Assembly (NCBI GenBank): GCA_041176065.1
Contig: JBEDDU010000051.1
Coordinates: 1 to 26,147, forward strand
From: Verrucomicrobiota bacterium
Lineage (GTDB): Bacteria > Verrucomicrobiota > Verrucomicrobiia > Opitutales > UBA953
DNA: 26,147 bases
Direction: 5' to 3'
The first letter of the stretch is position 1. Each line of letters begins with the position of its first letter. Position numbers and translations under genes: made by a program. Below the pieces are notes generated by a model. That model was not told the DNA's origin. It saw nothing but the letters and a program-made list of their open reading frames with translations, and ran no database searches. Below, piece by piece: positions 675 through 16,562 of the stretch.

Positions 675-1469
675 TCACCAGAGGCTGACCGGATTGTCTT
701 CGAGAGGGTCGACCACCGTGACGCGGAGGTCGGTCTTCCGGTCGCGCACTTCGTTCATCAGCGCGTCGACGATGACGGTCCGGTTGCATTCCTTGCTCAG
801 GTGCCCGAGGTAGAGCTCGGTCGCCTGCCATTCGCGCAGGCCGAGGAGCAGGTCCTTGGTCTGGGTGTTGGAGAGATGGCCGAAATTGCCGCGGATGCGC
901 TGCTTGAGCGAGACCGGCCGCTTGGAAAGGTCGAGCATCTCGTCGTCGTAGTTCGACTCCAGCACGAGGATGTCCGCCAGCGCCACATGGTGCCGGACGA
1001 CGGGGGTGACGTGGCCGAGGTCCGTCAGCCAGGTCAGGCGTTTCGCGGGCCGGGCGTCTTCGGCGGGGAGGTCGAAGGCGTAGCCCACCGGGTCGGCGGC
1101 GTCGTGCGGGATCGGGATCGCGGTGACCTGCAGGCCCTTGAACTCGAAGGTGGTGCCGGTCTCGAACAGCTGCCAGTCCGGCTGGGACTTGAAGGAGTCC
1201 TTGATGCGCCGCGCGGTCTCGCGGTTGGCGAAGACCTTGAGCTGCGGATTCTGGCGGAGCAGGGCGGGCAGCCCGACGCAGTGGTCGGAGTGCTCGTGCG
1301 TGATGAAGACGGCGTCGAGCGCCCGGGCTTCGATCCCGAGCTTCTGCAGGGAGGCCTCGAGCCGCGGTCCTTGGAAACCCGCATCAAGCATCACCCGCGC
1401 GCCGCCGACCTCGAGCAAGGAGCAGTTGCCGGAACTGCTGGTGCCGAGGATGTGGAAGGCGAAAGCCAT
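675..1469 (-). CDS. MBL-fold metallo-hydrolase, WalJ/YycJ-like
   Basis: Contains GTSSSGNC, the HxHxDH motif THEHSDH, HDA, TDLG, LESNYD, GHLSN and LGHLS. Start chosen at ATG 1469 (MAFAFHILG), 264 aa. Confidence 0.9.
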   Translation of the reverse strand: MAFAFHILGTSSSGNCSLLEVGGARVMLDAGFQGPRLEASLQKLGIEARALDAVFITHEHSDHCVGLPALLRQNPQLKVFANRETARRIKDSFKSQPDWQLFETGTTFEFKGLQVTAIPIPHDAADPVGYAFDLPAEDARPAKRLTWLTDLGHVTPVVRHHVALADILVLESNYDDEMLDLSKRPVSLKQRIRGNFGHLSNTQTKDLLLGLREWQATELYLGHLSKECNRTVIVDALMNEVRDRKTDLRVTVVDPLEDNPVSLW

Positions 1470-13428: not shown

Positions 13429-13764
13429 TCAGTCCTTGGTGATGTTGTAGACCGACGGGATCGAGATGCCGAGCTCGGCGGCGATCTCGCGGACCGGGGC
13501 GCCCTTGCGGCGCATGGCCTGGGCCTTGTTGCGCATGCTGTCCGAAATCTGGGCGCGGGCGCGGTTGGGGCGTGAGAGCAGCTTGATCAGACGCTTGGCC
13601 AGCTCGGGCTTCGAGAGGCTCGCGACTTCGCGTTCGATCATCGACTGGCGCTCGCTGTGCTCGTCTTCCCAGGCCTGCACGGCCAGGTCGCGGGCCTTGG
13701 AGAGGGCGGCGCGGACATAGGCGTCCTTGGAGCTGAAGGCGGAGGGGTCGAGGTCGATTTTCAT
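13429..13764 (-). CDS. Small protein with C-terminal resolvase/Hin-type helix-turn-helix
   Basis: 111 aa from ATG 13764 (MKIDLDPS...). C-terminal GAPVREIAAELGISIPSVYNITK is a clear HTH. Strong GC3 bias, and no recombinase catalytic domain. Confidence 0.82.
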   Translation of the reverse strand: MKIDLDPSAFSSKDAYVRAALSKARDLAVQAWEDEHSERQSMIEREVASLSKPELAKRLIKLLSRPNRARAQISDSMRNKAQAMRRKGAPVREIAAELGISIPSVYNITKD

Positions 13765-13839
13765 AAGTGGGTGCGGAGGTTCGGGCGTCACCTGAGTTTG
13801 TCTCCGACAATCCTGAGGTTAGGCCAGCACCCTCAAGGG

Positions 13840-13881
13840 TTTTATAATATTCCCAATTGTCAAACTTTGGTAAAAAAATTT
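13840..13881 (-). promoter_or_regulatory. AT-rich promoter region upstream of the HTH gene
   Basis: The most AT-rich stretch in the window. The minus strand carries TTGACA (13863-13858), TATTAT/TATAAA and a T-tract. The exact -35/-10 pairing is ambiguous. Confidence 0.55.
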
Positions 13882-13917: not shown

Positions 13918-14895
13918 TCACTTGCTCCATTCCAACATCCGGCGGAGCGGAATCTCCGCGGCGGCCCGGATGCTTTCAGGCAGCGCGATCTCGGGCGTGC
14001 CGTCCCGCAGGCAGTCGCGGACCTTCGTCAGCGTGTTCATCTTCATGAACTTGCAGTCGTTGCACGAGCAGCGGTCGGTGGGCGCGGCGACGAACGTCTT
14101 GCCGGGCACTTCCTTGCGGAGGCGGTGGATCATCCCAGATTCCGTCGTAATGATGATGGTATTCGCCGTCTGCTGCTTGCACCAGCCGACCATGAGTTCG
14201 GTGGAACAGACCATGTCCGCCAGGTCGCGCACGGCTTCGGTGCATTCGGGGTGGGCGACGACCGGCGCGCCCGGGTGGGCGGCCTTGGTCCGGAGCAGCG
14301 CGCCCGGCGTGAACTGCACGTGGGCGTAGCAGTTGCCCGGCCACAGCTGCATGGCGCGGCCGGTCTTGCCGGACACCCAGCGGCCGAGGTTCTGGTCGGG
14401 GACGAAGAGGATCTTCCGGTCCGCGGGCACGCGGCTGACGATCTTCGAGGCGTTGCCGCTCGTGACGATGACGTCGCAGAGCGCCTTCACCGCGGCGCTG
14501 CAGTTGATGTAGGCGACGACGTAGAGCGAAGGGTCGGCGGCCTTGGCGGCGGCGAGCTTCTCCGCGGGGCAGGAGTCGGCGAGCGAGCAGCCGGCGGCGA
14601 GGTCGGGCAGCAGCACGCGCCGCGTCGGGTTCACGATCTTGGCCGTCTCGGCCATGAAGTGGACGCCGCAGAAGACGATCGTGGACTGCTTGGCTTCGGC
14701 GGCCTTGTAGGCGAGGCCGAGCGAATCACCCACGTAGTCGGCCACGCCCTGGATGTCTTCGCACTGATAGTTATGCGCGAGGATGAGGGCGTCCTTGGCC
14801 TTCTTCAGCGCAAGGACTTCCTTCTGCAGGTCGGACAAGGGCGTCCCGCCGGCGGGCAGGGGCGGGAAGACGGAGGCGGTCGGATAGGTGATCAT
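13918..14895 (-). CDS. nadA: Quinolinate synthase A ([4Fe-4S])
   Basis: Contains LILAHNYQ, DYVGDSLGL, FCGVHFMAETAK, AGCSLAD, FVPDQNLG, GNCYAH, AHPEC and CKFMK, with three cluster cysteines. Start ATG 14895 overlaps the Fur-like stop. 325 aa. Confidence 0.96.
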   Translation of the reverse strand: MITYPTASVFPPLPAGGTPLSDLQKEVLALKKAKDALILAHNYQCEDIQGVADYVGDSLGLAYKAAEAKQSTIVFCGVHFMAETAKIVNPTRRVLLPDLAAGCSLADSCPAEKLAAAKAADPSLYVVAYINCSAAVKALCDVIVTSGNASKIVSRVPADRKILFVPDQNLGRWVSGKTGRAMQLWPGNCYAHVQFTPGALLRTKAAHPGAPVVAHPECTEAVRDLADMVCSTELMVGWCKQQTANTIIITTESGMIHRLRKEVPGKTFVAAPTDRCSCNDCKFMKMNTLTKVRDCLRDGTPEIALPESIRAAAEIPLRRMLEWSK

Positions 14896-15371
14896 GGGCG
14901 GGCGTTCTTGCGGCGCGGGCAGCGCTCGTTGAGGCAGGCGGCGGTGACCTGGAGTTTCTGGGAGATCGGGCGCATGCCGTGCTTGGCGGCGACGGCCTTG
15001 CCGTACCACTCCATGAACGGCGCGTCGACCTCGACGATCGAATCGCAGTTCTCGCAGATGAGCTGGGCGCGGAAGGTCTCGCTGCCGGCCTCGGCGAGGT
15101 AATATTTCTGGTCGCGGCCGACGTCCATCTCGCGGATGACGTTGCTGCCGACGAGGAGGGGCAGGGCGCGGTAGATCGTCGCGCGGGAGACGCTGCGGTC
15201 GATCGAACGGGCTTTCTTCAGCAGGTCCTCGGCGGTGTAGTGCCCCTGGATGGCCCGGGCCGCCTCGAAGACGGCCATCCGCTGACGGGTCGCCCGCAGC
15301 CCCTTCTCGGCGATGAACGCCTTGAAGGCTCCCGATTGCACCGCGGATTCTGGATTGGGTTGCTTGGGCAT
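14892..15371 (-). CDS. Fur-family transcriptional regulator, atypical (His-poor)
   Basis: Contains GLRATRQRMAVF, HYTAEDL, SVSRATIYRALPLL and CENC...CLNERC. Start is ATG 15371 (GTG 15386 is the alternative). Confidence 0.88.
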   Translation of the reverse strand: MPKQPNPESAVQSGAFKAFIAEKGLRATRQRMAVFEAARAIQGHYTAEDLLKKARSIDRSVSRATIYRALPLLVGSNVIREMDVGRDQKYYLAEAGSETFRAQLICENCDSIVEVDAPFMEWYGKAVAAKHGMRPISQKLQVTAACLNERCPRRKNARP

Positions 15372-15491
15372 GCCGATTTGAGACACTTTTGATACTGAAA
15401 GCCCGTCGCGTCAACACGGGACGCGTCATTGACACCCGCCCCTCGTAGCCCTTCATTTGCCCTCTTTTCCCTCAGGGAAGCCCGCCTACCG

Positions 15492-16562
15492 ATGACCCAG
15501 AATACGGACGACCTACGCATCCGCAGCCAGCACCCCCTGCTGACTCCCGCCCTCGTGCTCGCCGAACTGCCGGTCTCGGAGCGCGCCGCCGAGGTCGTCG
15601 CCGCCGCCCGCCGGGACGCCGCCAAGGTGATCTCGGGCCAGGACGACCGTCTGATGGTCATCGTCGGACCTTGCTCCGTCCATGACACCAAGGCCGCCCT
15701 GGAATATGCCGCCCTCCTGAAGAAGGAAGCCCGGAAGCATGCTTCCGAGCTCCTCGTGGTGATGCGCGTCTACTTCGAGAAGCCGCGCACCACGGTCGGC
15801 TGGAAGGGGCTCATCAACGACCCGCAGGTCGATGGCTCTTTCCGCATCAACGACGGCCTCCGCCTCGCGCGCGGCCTGCTTTCGCAGATCGCCGAAGCCG
15901 GCCTGCCGGCCGCGACCGAGTTCCTCGACCCGATCACGCCGCAATACGTGGCCGACCTCGTCGCCTACGGCGCCATCGGGGCGCGCACCACGGAAAGCCA
16001 GATCCACCGCGAGCTCGCCTCCGGCCTCTCGATGCCCGTCGGCTTCAAGAACGGCACCGACGGCTCGGTCCAGGTCGCCGTCGACGCCTGCCTCTCGGCC
16101 CGTTCCTCCCACTGGTTCCCGTCCGTCACCAAGGACGGCGTCGTCGCCATCTTCCAGACGTCGGGCAACCCTGACGCGCACGTCATCCTGCGCGGCGGCT
16201 CCCGCACCGGCCCGAATTACGGCGCCGAATTCGTGACCGACGCCGCGGCCCGCATCCAGAAGGCCGGCCTCACGACCCGTCTCGTCATCGATTGCTCCCA
16301 CGGCAACAGCTCCAAGGACCATCGCCGTCAGCCGCTCGTCGCCGCCGACATCGCCGCGCAGGTCGCCGCGGGCTCCCGCGTCATCGCCGGCGTGATGATC
16401 GAGAGCCATCTCGCCGAAGGCCGTCAGGACTGGAAGGGCAAGGAGGCTTCGGCCTACGGCTGCAGCATCACCGACGCCTGCATCTCCTTCGAACAGACCG
16501 TCCCCGTGCTCGAGGGACTCGCCGCCGCCGTCCGCGCCCGTCGCGCCCTGCCGGCTTCCTGA
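15492..16562 (+). CDS. aroG: 3-deoxy-7-phosphoheptulonate (DAHP) synthase, class I (AroF/G/H type; isoenzyme specificity not determinable)
   Basis: Contains VGPCSVHD, RVYFEKPRT, GWKGLINDP, IGARTTESQIHRELASGLS, VGFKNGT, IDCSHGNS, MIESHL, SITDACI. Start is ATG 15492, 356 aa. Confidence 0.95.
   Translation: MTQNTDDLRIRSQHPLLTPALVLAELPVSERAAEVVAAARRDAAKVISGQDDRLMVIVGPCSVHDTKAALEYAALLKKEARKHASELLVVMRVYFEKPRTTVGWKGLINDPQVDGSFRINDGLRLARGLLSQIAEAGLPAATEFLDPITPQYVADLVAYGAIGARTTESQIHRELASGLSMPVGFKNGTDGSVQVAVDACLSARSSHWFPSVTKDGVVAIFQTSGNPDAHVILRGGSRTGPNYGAEFVTDAAARIQKAGLTTRLVIDCSHGNSSKDHRRQPLVAADIAAQVAAGSRVIAGVMIESHLAEGRQDWKGKEASAYGCSITDACISFEQTVPVLEGLAAAVRARRALPAS

Follow-up and report, generated by a model that had tools for sequence, protein, structure and literature searches.

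Introduction

Fur is the standard example of an iron sensor in bacteria. In Escherichia coli it has two metal sites rich in histidine, of which site 2 is formed by H33, E81, H88 and H90 and site 1 by H87, D89, E108 and H125 (PMC10318462). How Fur senses iron is debated, the two positions being a mononuclear Fe2+ bound at the His-rich site and a [2Fe-2S] cluster bound at the Cys site (PMC10318462, PMC12538065); the latter was reported by Fontenot and Ding for the Fur proteins of E. coli and Haemophilus influenzae, with Cys93, Cys96 and Cys133 as the sensor residues (PMC10318462, PMC12538065). Here we analyze a Fur-family gene that overlaps nadA, the gene for quinolinate synthase, in a 26,147-nucleotide stretch of DNA from a Verrucomicrobiota bacterium of the order Opitutales (GenBank assembly GCA_041176065.1, contig JBEDDU010000051.1, positions 1 to 26,147; hereinafter the window). 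A first reading made from the letters alone (hereinafter the sequence-only reading) had taken its product for a repurposed Fur subfamily that lacks the histidine motif and might regulate NAD synthesis. The evidence assembled below makes it, on balance, somewhat probable that the protein is the iron-uptake Fur of the Opitutales with both of its His sites replaced, and that nadA is a clade-specific passenger in its autoregulated operon.

Several other departures from the classical scheme are relevant to this locus. The Fur proteins of Helicobacter pylori and Campylobacter jejuni also regulate in the apo form, and in H. pylori the holo and apo operators respond oppositely. Irr senses through an HxH heme motif and PerR through the oxidation of histidines, both being His-dependent; BosR is an activator of rpoS. 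The two enzymes that recur in this analysis, NadA and the leuC product, are both [4Fe-4S] proteins with a labile cluster, the latter being a dehydratase. A search of the literature library used here returned nothing specific on Fur in Verrucomicrobia or Opitutales, nor on a link between Fur and nadA.

Histidine and cysteine positions of the Opitutales protein

The regulator gene occupies positions 14892..15371 on the minus strand (ATG at 15371, stop at 14892-14894) and encodes 159 aa plus stop. Its product scores 73.7 bits against the Pfam FUR profile (PF01475; cut-off 23.1) and carries a CENC motif at residues 106-109, which bears out the family membership and the CxxC read from the letters alone; it reaches none of the NCBIfam equivalog cut-offs for Fur, Zur, PerR or Irr (best 52.6 versus 200 bits). 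The protein has two histidines in all, H44 and H131, as had been counted. Residue alignments made with HMMER to reference structures (C. jejuni Fur, Mycobacterium tuberculosis FurB and Streptomyces coelicolor Zur) place the FRAQ of the segment FRAQLIC under the HHDH or HHHH of the solved Fur and Zur proteins, confirming that this motif is replaced, and Gln138 under the last ligand His. The sequence-only reading had located the latter loss in the segment SQKLQV; the histidine is indeed replaced there, with the refinement that the ligand-equivalent residue is Q138, not K139. It had also named CLNERC as the second Cys site: both cysteines of this pair (C146-x4-C151) are present, but only the closest relatives share their C-x4-C spacing, which across the family runs from C-x2-C to about C-x12-C.

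A word-based search retrieved 731 relatives, and residue conservation was counted over the 116 near-full-length ones among them; every relative whose source is named belongs to Verrucomicrobiota of the Opitutales type. F100, A102, Q103 and Q138 are invariant among the 116, and these four positions as well as C106, C109 and C146 are each conserved to at least 97%; the C106-x2-C109 pair is found in at least 114 of them and C151 in 104. The sole conserved histidine is H44 (H33 in E. coli), and an APFMEWYG block is both invariant and family-specific. Mapped onto E. coli Fur, site 2 thus retains the H33 equivalent alone, with N or E at position 94, Q or R at 101 (E. coli H88) and the invariant Q at 103 (H90). 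At site 1, H87 is replaced by F100, D89 by A102 and H125 by Q138, all invariant, and E121 (E. coli E108) is the one ligand kept. The four cysteines are kept in the family, preserving a Cys4 site of two Cys pairs, and C106, C109 and C146, the equivalents of E. coli Cys93, Cys96 and Cys133, are conserved, which at the level of residues is what a [2Fe-2S]-binding Fur would show. There is no histidine in the stretch 97-105 that could serve as the regulatory-site His of PerR or the HxH heme motif of Irr, and the scores for these two lie far under their equivalog cut-offs.

To follow the distribution of this form, we surveyed 301 genomes sampled from the phylum, among them 62 others of the same order. 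Exactly one copy (E <= 1e-41) is present in 61 of these 62. Four genomes that belong to other families of the class have weaker homologs (36-45% identity), and no homolog at E <= 1e-25 was found outside the class or in the remaining genomes of the sample. The weaker homologs keep HPTHNH-LIC, that is, H-x-H-N-H ahead of the CxxC, and because they still carry these histidines the loss is placed within the order or at its base. A search of 1.84 billion representative proteins gave only 13 clusters at E <= 1e-30, with motif states that grade from His-less through HxHNH to the canonical HHDH. Read from the weaker homologs, the ancestor would be a Fur with a normal regulatory His site; the placement of the subfamily rests on identity, motif states and NCBIfam scores. 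Local degeneration, or a pseudogene, was ruled out, since the replacements do not vary and almost every sampled genome of the order has the gene in one copy. Judged by its residues, this is a coherent, conserved Fur subfamily in which the His-based metal sites are remodelled, not decayed.

Operators at the regulator's own promoter and at iron-uptake genes

Directly ahead of the regulator gene lies a candidate operator (15376..15395, minus strand), a tandem direct repeat whose period is 11 bp (GTATCAAAAGT / GTCTCAAAT) and whose end lies 4 nt ahead of the start codon. Most of the order has the repeat as GTCTCAAT-N3-GTCTCAAT, the clade of the window as GTATCAAAAGT-GTCTCAAAT. A regular-expression search found it upstream of fur at 67 of the 80 orthologous loci; the others mostly show, by eye, one-mismatch, inverted or 21-bp-spaced variants of the same repeat. 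With a position weight matrix derived from these operators, the window site scores 35.6 bits; elsewhere in the 1.75 Mb assembly no site exceeds 19.9, and the reversed matrix, as a control, reaches 20.1. In a genome of the same genus that is 99% complete (G197), the single exact match of the tandem operator is again the fur-nadA promoter, and neither this genome nor the window's own (G000) has a second tandem site. The weaker matches in the window's own genome (upstream of nrdB on contig C166, at the end of C138 and in the groES-groEL spacer on C52) score no higher than the control, and other matches to the tandem pattern in five genomes from another family of the order (G001-G005) were set aside as intragenic noise. 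Farther upstream, a TTGACG hexamer (15409..15414, minus strand), conserved in the clade, reads as the likely -35 element of the fur-nadA promoter; the tandem repeat, standing between TTGACG and the ATG, would likely cover the -10 region and the transcription start. With the hexamer 37 nt from the ATG and no Shine-Dalgarno sequence present, the leader could be very short. As a separate observation, the region upstream of the nrdB-like gene on C166 (about 1250-1430, minus strand) holds two palindromes like NrdR boxes, along with a TATCAAAAACC-TGTCAAAAATCG repeat that resembles the fur operator and has a control-level score.

The reverse complement of the repeat unit, the 8-mer ATTGAGAC, is the left half of a palindrome of 7-1-7 architecture, TGAGACT-n-AATCTCA. 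This box stands directly upstream of feoA-feoB in the window's own genome, upstream of feoA in G197, 49 nt upstream of feoA in a further genome (G188), and upstream of feoA in G001-G005. It also precedes six genes whose products start like TonB-dependent receptors; five of these were checked and all were confirmed (Pfam Plug plus barrel). By hand count, 63 genomes of the order contain 186 box matches versus 42 matches of a reversed control, and the first 40 genomes outside the class about 43 versus 28. Because the motif of the own promoter is common to the promoters of feoAB and of TonB-dependent receptors, we take the protein to belong to an iron regulon and not to an NAD regulon: a 7-1-7 operator at these uptake genes, held in common with the promoter of the regulator itself, is the pattern of a functional Fur, with the present protein as the presumed binder. 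In G248, from another family of the class, where the homolog keeps the His motif, the same box lies 12 nt upstream of feoAB; hence the DNA specificity, like the iron-uptake target, is apparently older than the loss of the histidine ligands.

One further site in G197 (locus L202, at about 1500) is a perfect-looking box, ATGAGATTGAGTCTCAT, with a TTGACA hexamer 9 nt ahead of it. Downstream of the box is a gene (1526-2332) for an exported 268-aa protein with a weak match to DUF6662, which is a candidate for a new iron-regulated outer-membrane protein.

Proposed role and the assignment of the boxes

The genomes carry two to five Fur paralogs, and that of the window has three beside the protein studied here. 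The first is His-rich and Zur-like or Fur-like; in other genomes this type adjoins a His-rich TonB receptor, which lends it a Zur-like look. The second, Cys-poor, lies directly upstream of sufC on contig C105 (L003:1447-1893, plus strand). This suf-linked type (148 aa, with an HAH motif and without CxxC pairs; orthologs at L117-L121, L182, L185 and L191) is preceded in other genomes of the order by its own distinct 7-1-7 palindrome, TTAGAATAATTCTAA, and appears to regulate the suf operon in the manner of PerR or Irr. The third is partial, has an HHH-LVC motif and lies directly upstream of katG on contig C115 (L004:3-266, plus strand), an arrangement that resembles FurA/PerR-katG. A fourth, small type is found in some genomes only.

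As binders of the box, the Zur-like and the small paralogs were ruled out, each being missing from some box-carrying genomes (the Zur-like one from G002 and G003), and a DtxR-type regulator was ruled out for at least five genomes, its domain not having been found in the five box-carrying genomes checked (G000, G197, G188, G200 and G281). G188, which is 98% complete and has the box, contains just two Fur-family genes, the His-less Fur and the suf-linked paralog. Taken together, this elimination and the presence of the motif at the fur promoter make the His-less Fur the best candidate to bind the boxes.

The role that we consider somewhat probable, that of an iron-uptake Fur with nadA as its passenger, can be set out as follows. 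A dimer would bind the 7-1-7 palindromes TGAGACT-n-AATCTCA at the promoters of feoAB and of TonB-dependent receptors, and the same protein would bind the tandem GTCTCAAT repeats over its own promoter and so regulate itself. In the clade of the window, nadA would have been drawn into this autoregulated operon and coupled translationally to fur, and NadA expression would then follow the iron or Fe-S signal of the regulator. The signal itself would be iron status. It may, more speculatively, be read at the Cys4 site, for example by a [2Fe-2S] cluster of the kind reported for the E. coli protein, and the inverted and the tandem sites might respond in opposite directions. The sensing chemistry would be non-canonical, possibly using the retained Cys4 site. 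The idea of a repurposed Fur subfamily that senses something other than free metal holds up to this extent: the His sites are remodelled, the four cysteines are kept, and sensing by cysteines or an Fe-S cluster is a live idea.

A bolder version, which strikes us as rather unlikely, would have the whole order run its iron-uptake regulon through a Fur that lacks both His sites, with sensing by the Cys4 site only (for example by a reversible [2Fe-2S] cluster) and two operator architectures that possibly respond oppositely. Were it true, one protein would provide both uptake repression, through inverted sites at uptake genes, and iron sparing, through tandem sites at itself, nadA and leuC, and nature would have supplied a knockout of the classical Fe2+ site that bears directly on the dispute over iron sensing by Fur.

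Several observations pull against the iron-uptake role. Tandem direct repeats are unusual sites for a Fur dimer with its two-fold symmetry. A few genomes of the class that lack a close ortholog show some enrichment of the box (for example 11 matches versus 1 in the control in G020). The window's own genome shows two sites only, at the own promoter and at feoA, which would make for a very small regulon; the assembly is 78% complete. A genus in the same family as the window (g2) has a histidine back at the H90 position (TFKGH-IVC), so that the His-less state is not uniform. Autorepression under iron-replete conditions would lower nadA when iron is plentiful, the opposite of a simple iron-sparing logic. 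Finally, the assignment of the boxes to this protein rests on shared motifs, the logic of autoregulation and elimination.

Some of these points feed the alternative that the TGAGAC/GTCTCA boxes are owned by another iron regulator, the His-less Fur being a mere target with a different role, such as that of a CxxC thiol or redox sensor with sites of its own. The number of paralogs per genome, the enrichment of the box where no close ortholog exists and the direct repeats, atypical for a Fur dimer, all lend themselves to this account, and redox switches based on Cys have precedents among Fur-family proteins. Yet in G188 the one other candidate is the suf-linked paralog, whose orthologs carry a different palindrome; the Zur-like and small paralogs are each missing from some genomes with the box, and the DtxR-type domain was not found in the five such genomes checked, as detailed above; the architecture of the box is the 7-1-7 of Fur-type operators; and the box at feoAB in G248 accompanies a homolog with its His motif intact. 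We regard ownership by another regulator as improbable.

Conformation of the protein and a TPR neighbor

An AlphaFold2 (AF2) model built from an 89-sequence alignment (mean predicted local distance difference test score 81.9) has the Fur fold and matches Fur, Zur and PerR structures with Foldseek E-values of ~1e-11. The closest is the DNA-bound Mn-Fur of Magnetospirillum gryphiswaldense (4rb1; template modeling score, TM, 0.80 by target, root mean square deviation 2.9), the apo forms being less similar (TM about 0.5). The model shows no domain or pocket in addition to the Fur fold. The match to 4rb1 hints weakly at a closed conformation without a metal at site 2, AF2 being biased towards crystallized states.

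In a set of 80 related loci from species-representative genomes, orthologs outside the close relatives commonly share a housekeeping context across the order, which is a divergent rplU-rpmA pair followed by fur, a gene for a small tetratricopeptide repeat (TPR) protein, and priA. The TPR gene (~120 aa) trails the fur ortholog by about 50 nt in 32 loci (L047-L084; for example L049:6499-6864), and its products share about 50-60% identity with one another. The window's own family yielded no such gene, even in three genomes of 98-99% completeness. The small TPR protein is a possible partner or co-sensor of the His-less Fur.

These two sets of data bear on a further alternative, in which the protein is a DNA binder blind to any signal, its hinge, which metal at site 2 normally closes, locked by the Gln, Phe and Ala replacements and its activity set by protein level or by a partner such as the TPR protein. 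The nearness of the model to the closed holo form and the recurrence of the TPR gene behind fur would suit it, and there is an analogy in Fpa/YlaN of Staphylococcus aureus, an Fe(II)-binding partner of Fur that relieves Fur repression (PMC11559061). However, the conformations that AF2 returns lean towards crystal states, and in the window's family Fur and its operators persist where no TPR gene was found. A signal-blind protein thus appears distinctly doubtful to us.

nadA, leuC and NAD synthesis

The second gene of the operon, nadA (13918..14895, minus strand; 325 aa plus stop), encodes a standard quinolinate synthase, with 378 bits against the Pfam NadA profile and 411 bits against the NCBIfam NadA equivalog. 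Its start codon overlaps the fur stop in an ATGA (14892..14895, minus strand), as the sequence-only reading had observed, which indicates translational coupling; this junction, or a gap of a few codons at most, recurs in close relatives. The two genes are probably co-transcribed. Between nadA and the next gene a promoter-like site, TTACCA-18-TATTAT (13844..13873, minus strand; one found versus 0.1 expected in shuffles), suggests that the operon ends after nadA. The next gene (13429-13791, minus strand) encodes a small 120-aa protein with a helix-turn-helix (HTH)-like C-terminal end; with a promoter-like site of its own, it is probably a separate transcription unit. On the other side of the operon, and outside it, a TTGACA hexamer (15429..15434, plus strand), with TTCATT standing 17 nt beyond it, is conserved in the clade and reads as the likely -35 element of a divergent gene for 3-deoxy-D-arabino-heptulosonate 7-phosphate (DAHP) synthase, whose start is probably at 15492; the interval 15409-15457 thus holds back-to-back divergent promoter elements.

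The linkage of fur to nadA is not conserved across the orthologs. In 42 of the 80 loci, all with at least 61% identity to the window protein, nadA lies directly downstream of fur, and in two further, more distant loci the order is fur-TPR-nadA; the other loci with sufficient flank have no nadA within 6 kb. Five genomes with the fur-TPR-priA context have an unlinked nadA, the upstream region of which shows no trace of the motif, and in the window's genus nadC lies elsewhere, likewise without the motif. Given also that no second tandem site was found in G000 or G197, an operator common to several NAD genes is absent from the sites surveyed.

The tandem site does occur at another gene for an Fe-S enzyme. 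In G001-G005, all of the fur-TPR-priA type, it overlaps the predicted promoter of leuC, whose product was identified as the large subunit of 3-isopropylmalate dehydratase (NCBIfam, 729 bits). It is clear in 3 of 30 further leuC loci across the order and absent at leuC in the window's own genome, and leuC holds as a general target only in part. Most likely, nadA here and leuC elsewhere are lineage-specific additions of Fe-S enzyme genes. The common theme, as read from the sites, is that the tandem type of operator goes with Fe-S enzyme genes and the inverted type with uptake genes.

The protein is, then, probably not an NAD sensor. That it is a dedicated regulator of NAD biosynthesis, sensing quinolinate, nicotinate mononucleotide (NaMN), NAD or the cluster state of NadA and controlling nadA, finds some appeal in the ATGA coupling kept in 42 close relatives, in the confinement of the tandem operator to the fur-nadA promoter in two genomes of the genus and in the two distant fur-TPR-nadA loci, but it is very improbable and was rejected on synteny and on the want of a shared operator: most orthologs of the order do not lie beside nadA, the unlinked nadA and nadC genes are without the operator, its half-site is common to the promoters of feoAB and TonB receptors, another family carries the tandem site on leuC, which is not an NAD gene, and the protein has no domain or pocket beyond the Fur fold. 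The suggestion of the sequence-only reading that this is a regulator of NAD synthesis is not upheld, an adjacency to nadA that is not conserved being one of the outcomes by which that reading said it would be refuted; the His loss, for its part, proved to be a property of the family and not of this locus.

Comparison with known systems

An order-wide Fur with fixed non-ligand residues at both His sites offers a natural test case for the debated mechanism: should the His-less Fur prove responsive to iron, the Opitutales would be a lineage that can do without the His sites. The nadA and leuC cases would show Fe-S enzyme genes recruited to the operator of an iron regulator in single lineages, and they caution against inferring pathway-specific regulation from a gene adjacency confined to one clade.

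With the regulators of NAD metabolism NadR, NiaR, NrtR and NadQ, the present system shares a position beside a gene of de novo NAD synthesis. It differs from them in belonging to an unrelated family, in a linkage confined to one clade, and in having neither an operator shared among NAD genes nor an effector domain. Irr, PerR and BosR (the CxxC motifs of the last being essential; PMC6476982) are comparable as Fur-fold regulators that depart from Fe2+ sensing at site 2, but none of them is linked to feoAB-type boxes as the window family is.

The likeness to the classical Fur proteins of E. coli, Vibrio cholerae, C. jejuni, H. pylori and M. gryphiswaldense is much broader. The winged helix and dimerization domain are the same, as is the type of recognition helix (ATVYR), and the CxxC and the C-terminal Cys pair are present likewise; there is a 7-1-7 inverted repeat at feoAB and TonB receptors, apparent autoregulation, and a single-copy, housekeeping gene. 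The best sequence matches among solved structures are those of C. jejuni Fur (4ets, 6d57). Unlike the classical proteins, the window protein has one of the four ligands left at site 2 (H33) and one of four at site 1 (E108), its half-site is TGAGAC(T) instead of TGATAAT, and tandem direct repeats stand on its own promoter. The pairing of inverted with tandem operators recalls the separate holo and apo operators of the apo-Fur systems of H. pylori and C. jejuni, whose Fur proteins, in contrast to the present one, keep all of their His sites. In E. coli Fur, too, the His sites coexist with the Cys site, whereas in the Opitutales protein they are gone, and C106, C109 and C146, together with C151, are the sole conserved set of candidate ligands left for a cluster of the [2Fe-2S] kind.

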